DNA of 59,853 nucleotides, filler included. It is 8 parts of 8 records of this genome, joined end to end, with 100 filler letters (N's around TTAATTAATTAA, not from the genome) between each part and the next. Parts side by side here need not be neighbours in the genome. Positions count along the whole stretch, not along the records: positions 1 to 9,664 come from SRR31156797_26822; 7 more parts are not named here. One strand, written 5' to 3'. Both the position numbers and the translations under genes were made by a program. Position 1 is the stretch's first letter; each line of letters opens with the position of its first letter. Below the pieces are notes generated by a model. The model was not told the origin of the DNA and searched no databases. It saw only the letters and a list, made by a program, of their open reading frames with translations. Below, piece after piece: positions 1-9,664 of this stretch.

Positions 1-1136
1 GCAGGATCGCTTTTTTTAAAGTATCCCGGTGTGGTGATGATCACATGCCCGAACTCGGGAGCCAGAAGCCGGGCCATGCCGTCTGCATCCTTATCGTCCT
101 GACAGGCAAACAGGAGCACCTTCGCCTTTTCGACCGATATGGTCAGGAAATTTTCCAGTGTCAGCGAGACGGAACGGGGCGTATGGGATCCGTCGAGAAT
201 GCAAAGCGGCTTCTCTGAAAGAAGCTGCATCCTTGCGGGCAGACTGGTGTTCCTAAAGCCCTTCAGCCATAGCGACCTGTCCCGATCGGGAAAGAGCCGG
301 GTCAGGACCTCCAGGGCCAGCGCCGCATTCCATGCCTGAATCTCTCCGGCCATCGTCAGCTCTCCCGTAAGGCTTCCTCCGTCCCTGCAGACAATGGTAT
401 AGCGACTGAAACCCGTCTCCTGGCTGAAATCGATGCGCTCTATTCGATCGTCAAGAAAGAGTAGCTCAGCCTCCATCTCTTCCGCCTTGTCCCGGAATAC
501 CCGGGCGGCTTCGCCCTCCTGGGGAGCGCTGAAGACGGGAATGCCCGTTTTTATTATACCGGCCTTCTCTGCGGCGATCAGCTCCAGGCTGTTACCCAGC
601 CACTGGGTGTGCTCCAGTTCTATCGGAGTAAGCACGACGGCTTCGGGTGCCACTGTGTTGGTGGCGTCGAGCCTGCCGCCAAGGCCCGTCTCGATAACGG
701 CCCAGCTGCATCCCGCTTCCTTGAACAGGAGAAAACCCAGAAGGGTTAGCAGCTCGAAAGTTGTGGGATCCGTACCGCCCGGCAGATCTCCCATGGACTC
801 GCGGATAGAGGAGATCATCCGGGTATAGGCCTCATCGCCGAGGGGTTTGCCGTCCACCTTTATCCTCTCTTTGTAGTGGAGGACGTGGGGTGAGCTGTAG
901 AGGCCGGTTTTGAATCCGCCTTCCTTCAACGCAGAGGCCAGGAAGGCGCAGACCGATCCTTTGCCCTTCGAACCGGCCGCGTGGATGATCTTGAAACTGT
1001 TCTGTGGATCTCCGAACTGCTTTAAAAGGACCCGCATGCGATCGGGACGGTAACGTCTCTTCAGATCCTTCGTGTTTTTCTCCAGATTGGTAAAGGATTC
1101 TATCCAGGAGAAAGCCTCATCGATATCTCTAAACAT
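1..1136 (-). CDS. folC: Folylpolyglutamate/dihydrofolate synthase (3'-truncated by window edge)
   Basis: Manual translation from ATG at 1136: MFRDIDEAFSWIESFTNLEK...IIHAAGSKGKGSVCAFLASAL...GLYSSPHV...ETGLGGRLDATN, all FolC motifs. Not in the ORF track because it runs off the edge. Confidence 0.93.
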   Translation of the reverse strand, partial: MFRDIDEAFSWIESFTNLEKNTKDLKRRYRPDRMRVLLKQFGDPQNSFKIIHAAGSKGKGSVCAFLASALKEGGFKTGLYSSPHVLHYKERIKVDGKPLGDEAYTRMISSIRESMGDLPGGTDPTTFELLTLLGFLLFKEAGCSWAVIETGLGGRLDATNTVAPEAVVLTPIELEHTQWLGNSLELIAAEKAGIIKTGIPVFSAPQEGEAARVFRDKAEEMEAELLFLDDRIERIDFSQETGFSRYTIVCRDGGSLTGELTMAGEIQAWNAALALEVLTRLFPDRDRSLWLKGFRNTSLPARMQLLSEKPLCILDGSHTPRSVSLTLENFLTISVEKAKVLLFACQDDKDADGMARLLAPEFGHVIITTPGYFKKSDP

Positions 1137-2431
1137 CAGCGTCTTTTTCTCAGGGCGTCTCCGTGGGTGGTGAAGCCCTCGTAGTCCGCCAGGACCTCTA
1201 CATGGGGGGATATCTCTTTCAGGGCGCCGGGACTGGTATAGATGACGGAGGAATACTTGATAAAGTCCCTCACCGATACGGCCGACCAGGTGCGCGCGTT
1301 TCCTCCCGTGGGGAGAACCGCATTGGGTCCGACGGCGTAGTTGGCGATTGAGAAAGGTGTGTCCTCGCCAAGGAGGATCTCTCCGGCGTTCCTTATCAGA
1401 GCCAGGGTTTCAAAGGGCTCCTCCGTCTGCAGCTGGAGATGCTCGGTGGCGAAGAGATTGGCAAGCTCCGCCGCTTCCTCAAGTGAGGCGGTAAGGATGA
1501 TGCCGCCGTAGCCCCGCATCACGTCTTCCACAAAGGTCTTCCGGGGCTCGGGAAGCTCGCTGCAAAACTCCTCTATATACCGGGCGCAGCCGTCAGCCAG
1601 CTCCTCGCTTGGCGTGATGAGAAGGGCCGCGGAATCTGAGCCGTGTTCGGCTTCGATAAGAAGATCGAGGGCCACCTTGCGGGGATCCGCCTTGCCGTCG
1701 GCTATGACGATGGACTCGGACGGCCCTGCGGGAAGGCCCACGTCCACCTGGCCGTAAAGGAGCCGCTTGGCAGCGGTAACATACATGCTTCCGGGGCCGA
1801 GCAGTTTGTGAACGGGCCTGATGCTCTCGGTGCCGTAAGCCAGGGCCGCCACGGCATGGGCTCCCCCTACCTTATAGACCTCTCCTACGCCGCAGAGCTT
1901 CGCCGCGTAGAGACAGGCGGGATCCACCTTCCCGTCCTTATCCGGAGGCGTCACAACCGCGATCCTGTCGACGCCGGCCACCTGAGCGGGCACGGCCAGC
2001 ATATAGAGCATGGATGGAAAATTCCCCCGGCCCCGGGGGACGTACAAGCCGGCGGATTCTATGGGAATAGCCTTCTCTCCGGCCAGCATCCCGGGACATA
2101 TCTCTACCATAGTCATGGCCTCGGGCTTCTGGGTTATATGAAATCGCCTGATATTGTCAATAGAGTATTCCAGTGCCTCTTTGACCTCGTCGCTGATGAG
2201 CTTGTCCGCTTCATTCCACTCCTCTTCCGAAACACGGAGTTCCATTGAGACCGGAGTGCCGTCGAAATTGTGATTGTAATCCCTGAGAGCGGCATCGCCC
2301 TCGTTCTTCACCCTGAGGACAATCTTCTCCACAGCGTCGCGGACCTCTGAAATATCCGTCTCTGAACGGGACAGGAGCGTGTCCCGCGCGGACCTGTCCA
2401 TGGAATTCCAATCGTATCTGTTAATCTTCAT
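1136..2431 (-). CDS. hisD: Histidinol dehydrogenase homolog (atypical active-site residues)
   Basis: GLYVPRG, KLLGPGSMYVTAAK, GLPAGPSE, AEHG, ATEHL, NAVLPTGG motifs. Start taken at ATG 2431 after RBS GAAAGGA. Stop overlaps the folC start (TGATG). Confidence 0.85.
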   Translation of the reverse strand: MKINRYDWNSMDRSARDTLLSRSETDISEVRDAVEKIVLRVKNEGDAALRDYNHNFDGTPVSMELRVSEEEWNEADKLISDEVKEALEYSIDNIRRFHITQKPEAMTMVEICPGMLAGEKAIPIESAGLYVPRGRGNFPSMLYMLAVPAQVAGVDRIAVVTPPDKDGKVDPACLYAAKLCGVGEVYKVGGAHAVAALAYGTESIRPVHKLLGPGSMYVTAAKRLLYGQVDVGLPAGPSESIVIADGKADPRKVALDLLIEAEHGSDSAALLITPSEELADGCARYIEEFCSELPEPRKTFVEDVMRGYGGIILTASLEEAAELANLFATEHLQLQTEEPFETLALIRNAGEILLGEDTPFSIANYAVGPNAVLPTGGNARTWSAVSVRDFIKYSSVIYTSPGALKEISPHVEVLADYEGFTTHGDALRKRR

Positions 2432-2556
2432 AAAAGTGTTCCTTTCATTTGTAGGGTGGTGCGGCTCTGCCCTATGGCATGATCCGGAAGGTTTCGGACT
2501 GCATGCGTTAAAGTATACCGGGTAGTCGGAGCATGTAAAGAACGGCTGCCTGCCGT

Positions 2557-2910
2557 TCAAAGCATGGTCATCTCAATCCTGCCGCCTATGCTGAGGGTAT
2601 CGCCCGGATTGATTTTGATATATTTCCCGGCCTTTATTTTCTTGCCGTTTATCATGGTGCCGTTGCTGCTGTCTCTGTCCTGCACAAAGTAGCTGCCTCG
2701 GATCTGTTGAATCTCAAGATGGAATCGTGAGACCAGGCCGTCTTCTATGACAAAGTCATTCTTCTTATCTCTGCCTATGGTCATTCGGCTTGCAATCTTG
2801 ATCTCTTTCCCATTGAACAGAAGGCAGCGGATGGTTTTATGCCCCACCTTCTTCAACCTCTTTCCGACGGGACTGTCCTGGATAATCGTTTCATCTTTCA
2901 CTAGAGGCAC
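2557..2910 (-). CDS. FHA domain protein
   Basis: IGRD...VSRFH...DRDSSNGTMING is the FHA signature. Confidence 0.88.
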   Translation of the reverse strand: MPLVKDETIIQDSPVGKRLKKVGHKTIRCLLFNGKEIKIASRMTIGRDKKNDFVIEDGLVSRFHLEIQQIRGSYFVQDRDSSNGTMINGKKIKAGKYIKINPGDTLSIGGRIEMTML

Positions 2911-3085
2911 TCCTGCGTTATATAATAAAATAAATAGTGGCCGAGGTACAGTAATAACGAGAAATTCGGCCTATGTCTGAGCACGTCCGGCTGCGTGTTA
3001 AATATCAAGTTTGATATTGCCGATAATTCATGATAAAGCGCACGGATTAAAATAGAATGATGTAAGCCGTGTTCAGGAGGATGCA

Positions 3086-3520
3086 ATGAAAGCCAGTGCG
3101 GATTTTCCTACTATAAACGATAAAAAGCCGGAAGGAGTCAGTCCCGGAGGGGTGCCTTACAGGGTCCTGATTATCGATGACTCCATGTTCGTACGCAAAC
3201 AGATCGGACAGATCCTTACCAGCGAAGGGTTTGAGATCGTCGATCAGGCCGGAGACGGGGTAGAGGGGATTGAAAAATACAAAGAGCACTCCCCCGGAAT
3301 CGATCTGGTGACTCTGGATATAACCATGCCGAGGATGGACGGCGTTACGGCCCTGGAAAAGATTATCCAGTTCGATCCGCAGGCCCGCGTGGTTATGATC
3401 AGCGCCCTGGGCAAACAGGATCTTGTTAAAAAGGCTCTTATCGCCGGTGCCAAGAACTATATCGTAAAGCCTCTGGACAGAAAGAAAGTCCTTGAGCGCG
3501 TAACCTCTGTTCTGGACTGA
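3086..3520 (+). CDS. cheY: CheY-type single-domain response regulator
   Basis: VLIIDDS, LVTLDITMPRMDG, SA, YIVKP motifs. N-terminal extension resembles spirochaete CheY. Confidence 0.85.
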   Translation: MKASADFPTINDKKPEGVSPGGVPYRVLIIDDSMFVRKQIGQILTSEGFEIVDQAGDGVEGIEKYKEHSPGIDLVTLDITMPRMDGVTALEKIIQFDPQARVVMISALGKQDLVKKALIAGAKNYIVKPLDRKKVLERVTSVLD

Positions 3521-3544
3521 TTTTTTTCGTTCCGCTATCCCTGT

Positions 3545-4249
3545 TCAGATAGAAGGGATGCGGCAGGGAATCCCCTCCGCCAGAAAGAGATCCCGAATCT
3601 CTTCCATATAGGACCGGCTTGTCGTTTCGTGCTCGTTATAGGCGGGATCCAGGCAGTTTTCAGGTTTGAAGGGGTTCAGAACGTAATCACGACAGCCCCT
3701 TATGAAACCCGCCAGTTCGGCCACCCACTCTTTTCTTATCAGATCAGGATGCACTGTCGTTCTGAACTGTGCGGGGATTCCGGAATCAATGATCATACGG
3801 ACGGACTTCTTCAGGGCGGTTGAGGCGCTGGCCGGAACCCCCAGCTGTGCCAGGTTTGTGAAGGACGTTTTAATATCCATGGCGATAAAGTCGGGAGCTT
3901 CGGTCTCCATTACCGATGCCAGACGTTCGGCAAGCAGGCCGTTGGTGTCCAGTTTTATCCGCAGCCCCGTTTCCGTTCGAACGATGCGGATGAAATCACT
4001 CAGGCCTTCGAATAAAAGCGGCTCCCCTCCGGATATAACCACCCCTCCCAGGAGGGGAGCCCTGTTTTTTAAAAATTGAATCACTTCATCCCTGTCAATC
4101 AGACCTTCCCTATCTCCCAGAACGAGTCCCGAATTATGACAGTAGGGACAGCGCATGTTGCATCCCGGAAAGAATATGACTGAGGCGACTCTTTCCGGGT
4201 AATCCAGCAGGGATGTCTTCAGAAGTCCGACGGATGGGGGCAGTCGCAT
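3545..4249 (-). CDS. nrdG: Anaerobic ribonucleotide reductase activating enzyme (radical SAM)
   Basis: GCNMRCPYCHN (CX3CX2C), SGGEP, DTNG. Last gene of the nrdD operon. Confidence 0.92.
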   Translation of the reverse strand: MRLPPSVGLLKTSLLDYPERVASVIFFPGCNMRCPYCHNSGLVLGDREGLIDRDEVIQFLKNRAPLLGGVVISGGEPLLFEGLSDFIRIVRTETGLRIKLDTNGLLAERLASVMETEAPDFIAMDIKTSFTNLAQLGVPASASTALKKSVRMIIDSGIPAQFRTTVHPDLIRKEWVAELAGFIRGCRDYVLNPFKPENCLDPAYNEHETTSRSYMEEIRDLFLAEGIPCRIPSI

Positions 4250-4254
4250 CTTCG

Positions 4255-4794
4255 TCAGGCGGTTACCGATTCCAGAGCGAACAGATTCTCGACATCCGAC
4301 GGATGGCAGGTCCTGTACAGCTCCTTACCCTCCGCATCCTGAAAGATGACGGTGGGCGCGGAGAATACCATGTTTTCGGAAGCGGCTTCCAACCCCCTTT
4401 CCATATCCACATTCAGATGCTCCCCTTCCAGGGGGAGCATGTCCAGAACGTCCTTCATAGCGGGGCAGTTGGGACAGCTGCTTCGATAGAAATAGCTGTA
4501 GCCGCTGATATTCTCTGTTGAGGCTATTGTCTTATCGGTTACGGGAGAGAGCTCCTCGATGGAAGCCGGCTCCTGCTGGGACTCATCATTATCGAAGGCG
4601 GCGGGAGCGCTGCTATCGGCGCTGAAGGCGACTCTCTCTTTATACTCGCCCTTCTTCCCGACGTTCCAGTTCTTAACGGAGCGGTAATAGCCTACGATAC
4701 GGGAGTACACCTCGGTATTCTGTCCCTCCACATTGTTCATCTGCTCCTTGAGGGCGGCGATTTCACTGTCGATTTCTCTGATTCTGGTTTTCAT
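4255..4794 (-). CDS. Stand-alone class III RNR glycyl-radical domain fused to a thioredoxin/glutaredoxin-like domain
   Basis: N-terminal coiled coil, then EVYSRIVGYYRSVKNWNVGKKGEY (glycyl-radical loop), an acidic linker, then YFYRSSCPNCPAM...SAPTVIF (CxxC plus cis-Pro thioredoxin fold). ATG lies 1 nt after the nrdD stop, with RBS AGGAGAGG. Confidence 0.85.
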   Translation of the reverse strand: MKTRIREIDSEIAALKEQMNNVEGQNTEVYSRIVGYYRSVKNWNVGKKGEYKERVAFSADSSAPAAFDNDESQQEPASIEELSPVTDKTIASTENISGYSYFYRSSCPNCPAMKDVLDMLPLEGEHLNVDMERGLEAASENMVFSAPTVIFQDAEGKELYRTCHPSDVENLFALESVTA

Positions 4795-4795
4795 T

Positions 4796-6907
4796 TCATT
4801 CCTCTCCTTTGGCCATAAGCGCAGCTTTTTCGTTTTCAAGGTCTTCTATTCTTGATTTGATCTTCCTTTTCTCTTCTTCCTGGCAAATAGGGCAGTTAAA
4901 GTGTTCTCCCCTCAGATAGCCATGGGTCTTGCATATGGAGAAGGTGGGGGAGATCGTGAAATAGGGAAGCCTGTAGTTATGGGCAATGGATTTCACCAGT
5001 TCCCGGCAGGCTTTCCAGTCCTCGATCGCCTCTCCCAGGAAACCGTGGAAGACGGTTCCTCCCGTATACCGCGTCTGAAGATCATCCTGAAGGTCCAGGG
5101 CCTCGAAGATATCTTCCGTATAGTCAACGGGCAGCTGGGTGGAGTTGGTATAGTAGGGATTGTCTTCGGTTCCGGCAGTTATGATGCTGGGGAAATGCTT
5201 CTTGTCATGCTTGGCCAGGCGGTAGCTCGTGCTCTCCGCAGGTGTCGCTTCGAGGTTGAAAAGGTCCCCCGTTTTTTCCTGGTAATCTGACAGTCTCTGG
5301 CGCATATGATCCAGAATCTCTCCGGCGAAGTCATGGGCGTCCCTGTCGGTGATATCTTTTCCCATAAAGTTGATCAGACACTCGTTCATTCCGTTGAGCC
5401 CTATAGTGGAAAAGTGATTGTTCAGATGGGAGAGATAGCGCTTGGTATAGGGGAAGAGCCCCGAATCCAGTAGGCGGTTGACCACCTTCCTCTTGACCAC
5501 CAGGGAGTCGCGTGCCAGATCCATCATATGGTTGAGCTGCTCGAAGAAGTCGCTCCGGCTGCCGGCAAGGAATCCGAGACGGGCCAGGTTTATGGTGACA
5601 ACGCCGATGGAGCCGGTGAATTCATCAGAACCGAACAGACCGCCGCCCCGTTTGCGCAGCTCCCTCTTGTCCAGCTGAAGACGGCAGCACATGGACCTGA
5701 CGTCCTCGGGATTAAGATCGGAATTGATGAAGTTCTGAAAGTAGGGCGTTCCGTAACGGGACGTCATCTCGAAAAGCAGCTGCGCGTTCTCGCTGTCCCA
5801 GTCAAAGTCCTTGGTAACGTTGTATGTGGGGATGGGATAGGCGAAGCCCCGGCCGTTGGCGTCTCCCTGAATCATAAGTTCGATAAAGGCCTTGTTGATC
5901 ATCCCCATCTCTTCGAGGCAGTCTCCGTAGGAGAAGTCCTGTTCCTCGCCGCCGACGATGGCCTTTCTCTCCTTCAGGTCATCGGGAACGGTCCAGTCCA
6001 GAGTTATATTGGTAAAGGGAGCCTGGCTGCCCCAGCGGGAAGGGGTGTTCACACCGAAGATAAAGCTCTGGATGCACTGCTTTACCTCCTTGTAGCCCAG
6101 CTTGTCGACCCTGACAAAGGGAGCCAGGTAGGTATCGAAGCTGGACAGGGCCTGGGCTCCGGCCCATTCGTTCTGCATAATTCCCAGAAAATTAACGATC
6201 TGGAAGATCAGGGTTGACAGATGGCTGGCGGGCCGGGAGGTAATCTTCTCACTGACGCCTCCCAGTCCCTCTGCGATGAGCTGACGGATAGACCAACCGG
6301 CGCAGTAACCGCTGAACATGGACAGGTCGTGGATGTGCATGGCTCCGCTGCGGTGCGCTTCCGCCACCTCTCTGGAATAGATATTCTTCAGCCAGTAGTT
6401 CGCTGTGATGGTTCCCGAATTGTGAAGGATCAGCCCTCCCAGGGAGAAGTTGACGTTGGCATTCTCGTTCACCCTCCAGTCTGACTGGGAAAGGTAGCCG
6501 TCCATGGTTTCGTTGATATCCAGCATCAGCTTTCTGGTATCCCTGATAGCCTCGTGCCGTGCCCTGTACAGGATGTACGCCCGGGCTATATCCACCTCAT
6601 TGTTTTCGATCAGCACCTTCTCAACGATATCCTGTATCTCTTCAACGGCGGGGGCTGAGTTGGGATGCCTGTCAGACATAAAGACGATCAGATTAGCCTC
6701 GACGCTCTTGGTCAGCCGATCGCTCAACTCATCGTCCTTACCGTGAACGGCATCAACCGCCTTGACGATGGCCTCGCGGATTTTGATCCTGTTGTAGGGG
6801 ACGACGCTGCCGTCCCGTTTTACAACCCTTTGAATGACGCTTTCTGCAGGCGACGCAGCTTTAGCCTCGTCGCCAAGAAAGACCCTCCAGTCGTTCTTAA
6901 GCTCCAT
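4796..6907 (-). CDS. nrdD: Class III (anaerobic) ribonucleoside-triphosphate reductase catalytic subunit, lacking the glycyl-radical loop
   Basis: ATP cone (VVKRDGSVVPYN), HIHDL, RSMCCRL, EATPAESTSYRLA, YTGGTVFH, CxxH...CPIC zinc site. No RxxGY motif before the stop. Confidence 0.95.
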   Translation of the reverse strand: MELKNDWRVFLGDEAKAASPAESVIQRVVKRDGSVVPYNRIKIREAIVKAVDAVHGKDDELSDRLTKSVEANLIVFMSDRHPNSAPAVEEIQDIVEKVLIENNEVDIARAYILYRARHEAIRDTRKLMLDINETMDGYLSQSDWRVNENANVNFSLGGLILHNSGTITANYWLKNIYSREVAEAHRSGAMHIHDLSMFSGYCAGWSIRQLIAEGLGGVSEKITSRPASHLSTLIFQIVNFLGIMQNEWAGAQALSSFDTYLAPFVRVDKLGYKEVKQCIQSFIFGVNTPSRWGSQAPFTNITLDWTVPDDLKERKAIVGGEEQDFSYGDCLEEMGMINKAFIELMIQGDANGRGFAYPIPTYNVTKDFDWDSENAQLLFEMTSRYGTPYFQNFINSDLNPEDVRSMCCRLQLDKRELRKRGGGLFGSDEFTGSIGVVTINLARLGFLAGSRSDFFEQLNHMMDLARDSLVVKRKVVNRLLDSGLFPYTKRYLSHLNNHFSTIGLNGMNECLINFMGKDITDRDAHDFAGEILDHMRQRLSDYQEKTGDLFNLEATPAESTSYRLAKHDKKHFPSIITAGTEDNPYYTNSTQLPVDYTEDIFEALDLQDDLQTRYTGGTVFHGFLGEAIEDWKACRELVKSIAHNYRLPYFTISPTFSICKTHGYLRGEHFNCPICQEEEKRKIKSRIEDLENEKAALMAKGEE

Positions 6908-6978
6908 GCTCCCCTCCCAGGAAAAGTAAAAAAAATATTCTGTCGTCTTTTTAATTGAGTTTAATTATTTATCTTTAT

Positions 6979-7434
6979 CTATTCAGTAAGAGTTTCGATG
7001 ATGCTTACGAACTCTTCTACGTTCTCAAAATGTCTGTATACCGAAGCGAAGCGGACATAGGCTACCTTGTCCAGGGCATAGAGCTGGGTCATGACCATCT
7101 CTCCCAGATCCACAGAACTGATTTCATGGCTGGATTTTCCCTTCAGATTAGCCTCATCCTCTATATCATGAAGAATGCTGTCTACCTTGACCTGGGATAC
7201 AGGTCTTTTTTCAACGGCTCTCTGGATACCCCTTTCCAGCTTTTTTATATCGAAAGGCTGGCGCGTGTTATCCTTCTTTACAACCATCAGAGGGATCTCT
7301 TCCACCTTTTCATAGGATGTGAAGCGATAGCCGCAAGAGGAACACTCGCGGCGGCGTCTGATAGAAGTACCGCTGATATTCTGCCTTGACTCGATGACTT
7401 TATCGTCCAGATTGTCGCAAAGGGGACATTTCAT
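6979..7434 (-). CDS. nrdR: Transcriptional repressor NrdR
   Basis: MKCPLC...KVIESR...IRRRRECSSCGYRFTSYE, ATP cone, DKVAYVRFASVY. Confidence 0.96.
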   Translation of the reverse strand: MKCPLCDNLDDKVIESRQNISGTSIRRRRECSSCGYRFTSYEKVEEIPLMVVKKDNTRQPFDIKKLERGIQRAVEKRPVSQVKVDSILHDIEDEANLKGKSSHEISSVDLGEMVMTQLYALDKVAYVRFASVYRHFENVEEFVSIIETLTE

Positions 7435-7448
7435 TTCTTTCTCCGGCA

Positions 7449-7519
7449 ACACTATATATGGGGCGCCATATAATGTGTTTCTTTTGACGTAAATCAATAT
7501 ACCACACCAGATATGGGTT
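7449..7519 (-). promoter_or_regulatory. Two NrdR boxes upstream of the nrdR-nrdD operon
   Basis: ACACTATATATGGGGC (7449-7464) and ACACCAGATATGGGTT (7504-7519) resemble the NrdR-box consensus acaCwAtATaTwGtgt and lie directly upstream of nrdR. Confidence 0.75.
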
Positions 7520-7619
7520 TTCAAGTTGGAAACAAGGATTTACTAAAAAATTAAATAGAATCAAATCTTTGAAAATCAATCATGGTCCTGTATGATAGAA
7601 TAAGTTCCTGAAGGAGAAA

Positions 7620-9305
7620 ATGATGCCTTTCGAATTAAAAATCAATACGATTAACGAATTCCACAATGAGGTTGTCCGCCGCTTCGCTGATCGTCCGTTT
7701 CTTTACTTTGTAGACGAAGAGCCAATCAGCTATAATGAGTATGCCGGACAGGTTCGCAATTTAAGAAAAAAGTTGATTCAAGCGGGTGTTAAGAAGGGAG
7801 AGCCCGTGGCTCTTCTGGGGCCGGCCTCCCCGAACTGGGCTGTGTCCTTTATGGCCGTGATGAGTGCCGGACTCGTGGTCGTGCCTATCATGGAGGACTT
7901 TCCCGCCGGCGATATCAATCACATCCTATCCGACTCGGGAGCCAGGGCGGCCATGATAGCGTCCCCTTACCAGAGCAGAAACGACCTTCCAGCCCTCAGC
8001 GGCCTGCCCCTGTTCAGTCTGGAAGATCTGAATCAAATAGACGGTTCTCCGCTTAATACCGGAGAGAGGGAGAGTTCAGGACCGCCTCCCTTTACAGAGG
8101 CTGAGCATCCCGAAGCCTGCGAAGCCGACGGGGATGGCTGCTACCCCGCCTCTCCCTCGGACGTCGCCGAGCTGCTGTACACATCCGGGACGACCGGCCA
8201 CTCCAAAGCGGTGATGCTGACCCATAACAATCTTGTCACCAATCTCTATGAAGGGACCGATCTGATAGATGAGTGCTTTGACGAACAGACGATACTGATG
8301 TCTCTGCTTCCCATGGCCCATGCCTACGGATCCACATCCGCGTTCCTCTCCATTATGTACAAGGGGCCCCGCATCTGTTTTCTGAGACGGAAACCCACAC
8401 CCGAATACCTTCAGACCGTATTCCGCAAGGTTCAGCCCACCGTTCTAGGCGGAGTGCCTCTGATCTTCGAGAAAATATTCCAGAAAAAGATACAGCCCAT
8501 GATCAGATCCAGGCGCTTCCTGGCCTGGGGGGTAGAGAACTCAACACTGTTCAGGAAGGCCTTCTATCGCCTGGCCGGGCGCTCTGTATTGAAATACTTC
8601 GGAGGGAAGATCCGGTGCATTATCATCGGAGGCGCCACCTTCAGCGAACAGGTGGAAACCTTTATGCGCGAGGCAAAGATTCCTTACCTTCTGGGCTACG
8701 GGCTGAGCGAGACCTCTCCGCTTCTCACCTTCTCCTCCCTGGGGGAATCGCGCTTCGGATCGGTAGGGCATGCGGTACGCCATACGGAGATTAGGATTTC
8801 CTGTCCCGATGACAAGGGGATCGGAGATATCGAAGTAAGGGGCCCCCAGATTATGAAGGGATATTTCAGGCGGAGCGAGGATACGGAAAAAGCCTTTACC
8901 CCGGACGGGTGGTTCAAGACCGGAGACCGGGGGATCATGGACGAGGACGGCTTCCTGTACATACGCGGGCGGAGCAAGAACGTCATCGTCGGGAGCTCGG
9001 GGGAAAATATCTACCCCGAAGTGATAGAGACCATGCTGAACGCTTACGATATTGTCGAAGAATCCCTGCTTTACATGGAAGGGCGATCTCTTACGGCCCT
9101 GATCTATCCCGATAGGGAATTGGCGGAAATGCGTTTCGGTGGAGACGAGAAGGCCCTTGCCGAGGCTCTGGACGCTGTGAGGATCGATTTAAACAAAGGA
9201 TTGTCCATGAACGCAAAGATCACCGGCATAAGACTGAGGGCCGAACCCTTTGAAAAAACGCCGACCAGAAAAATCAAAAGGGCCCTTTACATCCCCGGCT
9301 ACTGA
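7620..9305 (+). CDS. Long-chain fatty acyl-CoA synthetase (AMP-binding)
   Basis: LYTSGTTGHSK, GYGLSETSP, GWFKTGD, GRSKNVIV...GENIYPE. Confidence 0.9.
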   Translation: MMPFELKINTINEFHNEVVRRFADRPFLYFVDEEPISYNEYAGQVRNLRKKLIQAGVKKGEPVALLGPASPNWAVSFMAVMSAGLVVVPIMEDFPAGDINHILSDSGARAAMIASPYQSRNDLPALSGLPLFSLEDLNQIDGSPLNTGERESSGPPPFTEAEHPEACEADGDGCYPASPSDVAELLYTSGTTGHSKAVMLTHNNLVTNLYEGTDLIDECFDEQTILMSLLPMAHAYGSTSAFLSIMYKGPRICFLRRKPTPEYLQTVFRKVQPTVLGGVPLIFEKIFQKKIQPMIRSRRFLAWGVENSTLFRKAFYRLAGRSVLKYFGGKIRCIIIGGATFSEQVETFMREAKIPYLLGYGLSETSPLLTFSSLGESRFGSVGHAVRHTEIRISCPDDKGIGDIEVRGPQIMKGYFRRSEDTEKAFTPDGWFKTGDRGIMDEDGFLYIRGRSKNVIVGSSGENIYPEVIETMLNAYDIVEESLLYMEGRSLTALIYPDRELAEMRFGGDEKALAEALDAVRIDLNKGLSMNAKITGIRLRAEPFEKTPTRKIKRALYIPGY

Positions 9306-9664
9306 GCGGAGGAGCTGGCGTCGGCCTCTTTGTTATACGAACCGTTCTCTTTGAGCTCTTCGTAGCTGAGTGTTTTACTGATCACCGTCCTGCTTTCCAC
9401 ATCGATACCATCAACGGCGGGGATCAGGCTGTAACCCGATTCATCCTTGAGGACGCTGAGATGAAGCTCCGGACGGGAGTCTCCTGAAAAGATTAGAGAG
9501 ATCCCCAGGGGATTGGGCGGATTGATGCCGATGAAGATTCTCAGACTTTTCTGGTCCGGACTCAGTTCGTATGGGTAGAGGCTGTCGTAGAGTACGAGCC
9601 TTTCCTCCGACCTCGCTTCTAGTCGGATCTCATCCGCCCCATCTTTTGTCCGGATATCCAGATC
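9299..9664 (-). CDS. Hypothetical protein, C-terminal fragment
   Basis: Open frame from the contig edge to TAG at 9299-9301 (...YPYELSPDQKSLRIFIGINPPNPLG...DASSSAQ*). Confidence 0.55.
   Translation of the reverse strand, partial: DLDIRTKDGADEIRLEARSEERLVLYDSLYPYELSPDQKSLRIFIGINPPNPLGISLIFSGDSRPELHLSVLKDESGYSLIPAVDGIDVESRTVISKTLSYEELKENGSYNKEADASSSAQ

Follow-up and report, generated by a model that had tools for sequence, protein, structure and literature searches.

The window analysed here is a stretch of 59,853 nucleotides made of eight joined parts of one genome (filler included; positions 1 to 9,664 come from SRR31156797_26822). Between positions 4255 and 6907, its minus strand carries two adjacent genes that very probably encode a class III (anaerobic) ribonucleotide reductase (RNR) naturally made of two chains, as judged from sequence and structure models. 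To our knowledge, all characterised class III reductases bear the glycyl radical on the catalytic chain. In the present system, the catalytic chain NrdD stops soon after its zinc site, and the glycyl-radical loop belongs to a second, small polypeptide that also harbors a thioredoxin-fold domain. The two genes are separate, and their separation is conserved: the NrdD open reading frame (ORF) ends ahead of the small gene in 75 of the best 80 loci analysed in spirochaete genomes.

Gene junction

Three features define the split in the window:

4796..6907, minus strand: nrdD, large chain of 703 residues plus TGA (ATP-cone, catalytic barrel, zinc ribbon, tail helix)
4255..4794, minus strand: small-chain gene, 179 residues plus stop (helix, glycyl-radical loop, helix, disordered linker, thioredoxin fold)
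4792..4810, minus strand: junction, with AAAGGAGAGG at 4810-4801, TGA at 4798-4796, spacer base at 4795, and ATG at 4794-4792

A single base (4795) thus lies between the nrdD stop and the small-gene start, and the two frames differ. The sequence GGAGAGG, located 6 nucleotides 5' of the small-gene ATG, forms a ribosome-binding site within nrdD. The ORF listing offers an alternative small-gene frame of 194 residues that begins with TTG at 4839; 44 aligned relatives support the ATG at 4794 instead, which is retained. A contig from an independent run (X4) spans the junction from 4638 to 4860 with two substitutions and no gap, the contigs of run X3 do not cover it, and the RNA run X8 covers positions 5186-5341 only. 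In run X2, an independent metagenome, both contigs end at the junction (4790 and 4798) and neither crosses it, which may reflect strain variation at this point.

Large chain

The large chain matches PF13597 (NRDD) over profile positions 1-539 of 562 (E 8.5e-178, 592.9 bits, cut-off 26.2) and NF006126 (1098.4 bits, cut-off 548), and its best solved relative is the NrdD of Thermotoga maritima (4COI/4U3E, E 6e-38). It terminates with ...IKSRIEDLENEKAALMAKGEE directly followed by TGA, and its charged, heptad-patterned tail reaches 28 residues past the zinc site. No glycyl-radical motif occurs in its 703 residues. Its features are the following:

6551..6829, minus strand: ATP-cone, residues 27-119 (PF03477, E 1.6e-21)
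6293..6310, minus strand: GYCAGW segment with Y201-C202, the conserved active-site cysteine, aligned with T. maritima Tyr124-Cys125
5681..5692, minus strand: finger loop M406-C407-C408-R409 of the double-cysteine type, aligned with T. maritima SCCR
4883..4933, minus strand: predicted zinc ribbon C659-x2-H662 ... C672-x2-C675 (CKTH...CPIC), the whole site on the large chain
4799..4882, minus strand: tail helix, residues 676-703, amphipathic, putative first arm of the coiled coil (from relatives, the complex model, and the alignment with the fused relative P0133)

Y201-C202, the MCCR finger loop, and the four zinc ligands are invariant across 37 aligned large chains. The predicted metal site would be a Cys3His variant of the zinc ribbon, whereas phage T4 NrdD has four cysteines at this site; H662 of the Cys-x2-His ... 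Cys-x2-Cys arrangement is invariant in the 37 sequences of this NrdD lineage. Among the features of class III enzymes, the barrel, the active-site cysteine, the finger-loop cysteine, the zinc ribbon, and an NrdG activase are all present; the RxxGY radical loop is absent from the C-terminus of the catalytic chain and is found on the 179-residue chain. The roles of Tyr124-Cys125 and of SCCR in T. maritima NrdD are those described in PMC4493059.

Small chain

The small protein begins with MKTRIREIDSEIAALKEQM. It matches only the end of the NRDD profile (positions 531-562 of 562, E 7.1e-08, 32 bits, cut-off 26.2), and its Pfam and NCBIfam matches are confined to the last ~30 positions of NrdD profiles. 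Since the large chain covers positions 1-539 of the same profile, the two chains are complementary in content. Three parts can be delineated:

4735..4794, minus strand: N-terminal amphipathic helix, residues 1-20, putative second arm of the coiled coil (AlphaFold2 model, complex contacts, P0133 alignment)
4684..4707, minus strand: glycyl-radical motif Y30-S-R-I-V-G35-Y-Y37, with the G35 codon at 4692-4690
4264..4503, minus strand: thioredoxin-fold domain, residues 98-177, with C107-P-N-C110 at 4476-4465 and the conserved proline in A-P147-T-V

The YSRIVGYY motif occurs nowhere else in the window. A protein database search yielded 193 small-chain homologues (E <= 0.001) among 233 candidates of 99-315 residues. 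The 120 homologues listed are 139-255 residues long, all carry PF13597, and their identity ranges from 79% to about 34%; the named sources are Spirochaetales, Spirochaetaceae, or Treponema. A search for shorter versions gave three matches of 64-70 residues among four candidates, and these matches may be truncated where their contigs end. Across 44 aligned small chains, no variation is seen at the radical glycine G35 and the residues flanking it, at the two CPxC cysteines, or at the thioredoxin proline.

The small chain was modelled alone with AlphaFold2 on the same 44 sequences. In the numbering of this alignment and model (A1), which is the true protein numbering plus one, the successive segments and their predicted local distance difference test (pLDDT) values are:

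2-21: helix, pLDDT 90-95
29-39: radical loop, pLDDT < 50
41-54: modelled helical, block mean pLDDT 55
61-84: linker, pLDDT < 50
99-178: strand-helix-strand-helix-strand-strand-helix domain, pLDDT about 96

Foldseek comparison of the C-terminal domain retrieved 181 PDB chains with E <= 0.001, thioredoxins being on top with a template modelling (TM) score, normalised on the target, of about 0.6. The thioredoxin fold, the CxxC site, and the conserved proline before strand 3 expected of a redoxin are all found. Some small-chain relatives carry precomputed PF00462, PF13098, or PF13192 matches, and the database names of the gene vary between glutaredoxin, thioredoxin, NrdD, and hypothetical protein.

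Conservation of the split

A scan of species-representative genomes returned at least 598 matching loci, the best 80 of which were analysed. Across the 75 split loci, the nrdD stop codon is TAA in 52, TGA in 19, and TAG in 4, and the relations between the nrdD and small-gene frames are evenly distributed (26/26/23). The distance from the nrdD stop to the first aligned small-chain residue ranges from -46 to 346 nucleotides, with a median of 67 (start codons at the printed locus junctions were chosen by a heuristic). Four of the five remaining loci have 2.3-4 kb upstream and no nrdD, and the fifth, with 150 nucleotides upstream, is uninformative.

The split is also found in the cultured isolates Treponema bryantii XBD1002, Treponema sp. 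OMZ 840, and T. lecithinolyticum ATCC 700332. In OMZ 840, both ORFs are in the same frame, yet a TAA and 14 codons lie between them; the genome search had displayed a 909-residue open frame over both genes, and direct translation shows the in-frame TAA instead. In at least two genomes (G001 and G004), a truncated-type nrdD and the pair formed by the small gene and nrdG are on different contigs. The unlinked nrdD genes of these two genomes, 719 and 716 codons long, end with the same terminal helix and have unrelated neighbour genes.

These results bear on a first-pass annotation of the window, made from its letters alone. It had described a 703-residue NrdD ending soon after its zinc site in a heptad tail, devoid of a glycyl-radical motif, and this is confirmed by the ORF and the profile matches. 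It had also described a following ORF in another frame, one nucleotide on, with its own ribosome-binding site (GGAGAGG), a heptad helix, and YSRIVGYY, and the sequence agrees on each count. Its proposal of a two-chain class III RNR is upheld by the conservation of the arrangement, in both the 193 small-chain homologues and the 75 split loci. As to its suggested checks, the same split point recurs in spirochaete genomes, which excludes an assembly frameshift, and an indel at the junction finds no trace in the independent contig.

Two loci of the scan stand apart. In a Treponema metagenome-assembled genome (MAG), a small-chain gene (L065:3986-4531) is isolated, neither nrdD nor nrdG lying in the 4 kb before or after it; the same genome possesses a truncated-type nrdD located where a contig ends (L083), as well as a second NrdD homologue (L085), 32% identical, in an 809-codon open frame. 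The isolated gene may encode an additional radical chain. At L060:2050-4621, the small-gene frame is open for 856 codons, back across the whole nrdD in another frame, and nrdD has its own stop 41 nucleotides before the small-gene start; this long open frame is probably a composition effect.

Apparent reliance on the split enzyme

PF02867, the class I/II large subunit, has no match in six of the ten genomes tested, namely T. bryantii and five Treponema MAGs, and TIGR02505 is likewise without a match in T. bryantii. PF02867 is present in the other four, and the control genomes of the search behaved as expected. Each of five genomes counted has exactly one large and one small NRDD match. The split enzyme would thus be, assembly completeness permitting, the only source of deoxyribonucleotides in several of these organisms, and, with no class I/II reductase matched in those six genomes, it would have to be functional.

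Docking model

The complex of the two chains was predicted with ESMFold2, custom alignments not being used, in three runs accompanied by three controls. The complex score is 0.76 in all three runs, and the best of the three controls scores 0.00; the mark set for this score is reached by 51 of 78 solved complexes and by 2 of 108 mismatched pairs. The runs share at least 68% of their contacts, with a partner pLDDT of at least 70.

In the model, large-chain residues 683, 687, 690, and 694 contact small-chain residues 16, 13-16, 9-13, and 9, respectively, so that tail residues 683-694 pair with residues 16-9 in an antiparallel manner and with heptad spacing; the tail as a whole contacts small-chain residues 2-20. 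Residues 27-32 of the small chain are paired with the zinc-ribbon strands 655-659 and 668-672, and residues 23-38 and 45-63 are in contact with barrel residues. The coiled-coil docking predicted by the first-pass annotation thus reappears as an antiparallel helix pair in this model, and the two helices correspond to the arms of a hairpin in the fused relative P0133 (see below).

Fused relatives and the position of the break

A search for longer relatives gave 36 matches among 929 candidates, including 10 canonical or partial NrdDs without a redoxin tail and 25 single-chain forms with a thioredoxin-like tail. The spacer between the last CxxC and EVYSRIVGYY is 4 residues in all 10 canonical NrdDs. 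In the 25 fused forms, it amounts to 4 (6 proteins), 9 (1), 15 (1), 26 (12), 30 (2), 46 (2), or 52 residues (1). The protein with the 52-residue spacer, P0133, has both helices in one polypeptide. Its residues 643-709 align without gap, and with 57% identity, with the final 67 residues of the large chain, and its residues 710-892 with small-chain residues 4-173 (E 1e-26). Taken in succession, the two chains thus correspond to the single chain of P0133, with the break at the turn between the two helices. At the level of these alignments, the break is shown to be the turn of an inserted, predicted helical hairpin that separates the zinc site from the radical loop.

Among 64 split relatives, the large-chain tail is 22-38 residues long (median 27) and the small-chain leader 25-31 (median 28), with hydrophobic residues at a spacing of 3-4. 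The correlation between tail and leader lengths (Spearman -0.06, p 0.66, n = 64) is uninformative, since these lengths barely vary.

A quick maximum-likelihood tree was built from 91 NrdD cores (65 split, 18 fused, and 8 canonical; one locus with X was dropped), cut at the zinc site, which kept the split trait itself out of the tree. Fused and split forms are interleaved; the split/fused state requires six changes, at least four of these changes being forced by well-supported branches. A clade of 41 rows, mostly labelled Treponemataceae, is entirely split. The nearest relatives of the window's NrdD are two Oceanispirochaeta MAGs, with up to 85% identity. The sampling is biased, the split rows coming from the best 80 genome loci and the fused rows from a word-based protein search; the root is uncertain, so that the tree does not fix the number or the direction of the events. 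One locus labelled uncultured Collinsella (Actinomycetota), L025, is nested in a Treponema clade, a placement that a binning error or a recent transfer would explain.

Neighbouring genes

The minus-strand order is nrdR, nrdD, small gene, and nrdG, all four being closely spaced. The two flanking genes are:

6979..7524, minus strand: nrdR ORF, ATP-cone/zinc-ribbon repressor (TIGR00244, 184.7 bits, cut-off 124.65)
3545..4249, minus strand: nrdG, radical SAM activase (TIGR02495 NrdG2, 177.3 bits, cut-off 131.15)

The nrdG start lies 5 nucleotides past the small-gene stop. The listed nrdR ORF begins with a TTG at 7524 and the TIGR00244 model aligns from residue 31, so that the true start is likely the ATG at 7434-7432, not the TTG 30 codons upstream of the model alignment. 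A promoter and terminator scan gave counts no higher than in shuffled sequence. Beyond the window, nrdR lies ahead of nrdD in 65 of the 75 linked loci. Of the 75 loci that have nrdD upstream, 62 contain all four genes, and in 76 of the 80 loci the gene immediately after the small one is nrdG. Where the genes are unlinked, the small gene keeps company with nrdG and not with nrdD (L014, L074, L079).

Proposed mechanism

In the proposed two-chain enzyme, the tail helix of the large chain and the N-terminal helix of the small chain would pair in an antiparallel fashion and dock the chains, allowing the radical loop to enter the barrel as in one-chain NrdDs. NrdG, encoded next door, would install the radical on G35 of the small chain; it most likely acts on this chain, because nrdG adjoins the small gene and stays with it when nrdD is elsewhere. 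The thioredoxin domain, tethered by a flexible linker of ~40 residues, would re-reduce the active-site cysteines at each turnover and would itself be recharged by the cellular thioredoxin reductase. By analogy with Grx::NrdB of Facklamia ignava (PMC6187632), the tethered domain may be the enzyme's own reductant. Double-cysteine NrdDs are linked to thioredoxin-type reduction in PMC9669993.

Several points weigh against this picture. The two-chain assembly, the location of the radical, and the activity are predictions from sequence and models. In the docking model, the thioredoxin domain makes no confident contact. The halves of a split gene tend to pass such a test by likeness to solved one-chain NrdDs, so that the pass mainly reflects this likeness; the contact geometry is still informative as a model, and the alignment with T. 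maritima NrdD (4COI) stops at the zinc site. The PF00462 (Glutaredoxin) match of the window's small chain, at 18.0 bits, is below the cut-off of 22.9. The finger loop MCCR retains a methionine, a residue linked to formate-dependent reduction in PMC9669993, and T. maritima NrdD is not supported by Escherichia coli thioredoxin according to PMC4493059. Lastly, the sole-reductase result comes from the draft genome of a single isolate and from five MAGs of unstated completeness.

Possible reasons for the split

The split may be retained as a neutral fission that the already present hairpin rendered harmless, for activase access, or for exchange of a damaged chain. The single most likely reason is the first, which by itself has slightly less than an even chance: a stop and a start at the turn of a stable inserted hairpin would cost nothing, and the split would drift in and out without serving any function of its own. 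This is what would be expected from the graded inserts of the fused forms (4 to 52 residues), from a break mapping exactly onto the hairpin turn, from the repeated state changes on the tree with their well-supported branches, and from a gene order that is otherwise unchanged in the 62 four-gene loci. On the other hand, the 41-row clade is uniformly split, the narrow helix lengths speak for a sustained constraint on the two-chain form, and the data cannot separate neutrality from a weak advantage.

Oxygen cleaves the NrdD chain at the glycyl radical, and GrcA/YfiD is known to rescue pyruvate formate-lyase. A comparable role is conceivable here, although unlikely: the split would have been selected since oxygen cleaves only the 20-kDa chain, which could be swapped for a fresh NrdG-activated copy. 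The radical loop does reside on its own small chain, for which a predicted two-helix coiled coil is the main attachment, the lone loop is modelled as disordered and is thus likely accessible to the activase off the enzyme, and the unlinked small gene stays with nrdG. Further spare parts for glycyl radical enzymes are called plausible but unvalidated in PMC8683613. Against this idea, the single small gene per large gene in five of five genomes, a weak argument in itself, and the spacing of one nucleotide with a ribosome-binding site inside nrdD, which suggests coupled synthesis, point to 1:1 production and not to a spare pool. Moreover, after cleavage at G35 the docking helix (1-20) would still be bound to the large chain, where it could block replacement, fused and split forms are intermingled in the tree, and the large chain is without a radical domain of its own, unlike the enzyme rescued by GrcA. 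The oxygen-repair rationale, which is conjectural, is thus mildly disfavoured.

In its fullest form, this idea makes the small chain a dissociable "radical cartridge", activated by NrdG off the enzyme, docked through the coiled coil, providing both the radical and the electrons, and exchanged after oxygen damage. Such a cartridge is doubtful; if real, it would mean a class III enzyme working like a two-subunit class I enzyme, and the first spare-part system outside pyruvate formate-lyase.

Finally, an assembly frameshift, a decaying pseudogene, or a programmed frameshift or readthrough giving one fused chain has a negligible probability: two ORFs one nucleotide apart in different frames could by themselves look like an indel, but the three stop codons, the even use of all frame relations, the spacers of up to hundreds of nucleotides across the split loci, and the copies unlinked in two genomes leave no room for any of the three, and the in-frame TAA and 14 codons of OMZ 840, the gap-free contig, the invariant catalytic residues, and the sole detectable RNR in six of ten genomes stand against them as well. 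An interruption by an intron, intein, or homing endonuclease, as in the split nrdD of phages, was also considered and is ruled out by the one-nucleotide gap and the 28-residue tail helix.

Relation to known systems

One-chain NrdD/NrdG systems (T. maritima 4COI/4U3E, phage T4 1H78) share with the two-chain form the barrel, ATP-cone, active-site cysteine, finger-loop cysteine, zinc ribbon, RxxGY loop, and adjacent NrdG. In contrast to them, the loop is here on a second polypeptide, an inserted hairpin of ~55 residues is interrupted at its turn, the enzyme has gained a thioredoxin-fold domain, and the second zinc ligand is a histidine. The fused spirochaete NrdD-thioredoxins (806-910 residues, such as P0133 and P0141, known as database entries only) belong to the same lineage and possess the same radical loop and C-terminal CPxC thioredoxin domain. 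They are, however, single chains, most of them with shorter inserts or none (4-46 residues), P0133 having both helices.

GrcA/YfiD of E. coli and Y06I of phage T4 are likewise small separate glycyl-radical proteins, serving pyruvate formate-lyase and activated by the activase of that enzyme (PMC8683613, PMC13450708). The first-pass annotation had compared the small chain to GrcA, and the comparison stands in part: the radical loop is indeed on a stand-alone small protein, but this chain also carries a thioredoxin-fold domain (CPNC) that had been overlooked. GrcA, in addition, duplicates the radical domain of an enzyme that is complete without it and intervenes once damage has occurred, whereas the small chain holds the only radical loop and belongs to the NrdD family, not to that of pyruvate formate-lyase. 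Since no complete enzyme coexists with it in any of the five genomes, it does not strictly qualify as a spare part of the GrcA type.

NrdJa/NrdJb, the class II reductase of Pseudomonas aeruginosa, is similarly composed of a large catalytic and a small C-terminal chain. Both chains are needed, the small one handles dithiol exchange, and the assembly is (ab)2 (PMC4520616); that paper terms it a unique split RNR in a free-living organism. NrdJa/NrdJb uses B12, and its small chain has no radical site, unlike the present one. The Grx::NrdB of Facklamia ignava, of class I, likewise fuses a redoxin to the radical-bearing subunit, and its Grx domain serves as the enzyme's own reductant (PMC6187632). 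It differs in that the subunit is of the metal/tyrosyl-radical type and that Grx is N-terminal. The same source reports only one grx::nrdD fusion, in a Lachnospiraceae bacterium. Phage RNR genes are split through introns, inteins, and homing endonucleases, with cases of interrupted nrdD (PMC3653736). According to a 2026 review (PMC13450708), small radical proteins are known, among glycyl radical enzymes, for formate lyases alone. Full-text literature searches, subscription papers and supplements being outside their scope, found no account of a class III reductase whose radical chain is encoded by a gene of its own.

Significance

For annotation, the large gene of such a pair could pass for a truncated pseudogene, and the small one is inconsistently named. 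For the biology of spirochaetes, the two-chain form is lineage-wide, occurs in cultivable Treponema, and is apparently the sole reductase in some of them. It constitutes a natural system for the question of how the activase reaches a buried glycine, and it would permit testing both the exchange of the radical chain after oxygen damage and the role of a tethered thioredoxin as reductant of double-cysteine NrdDs.

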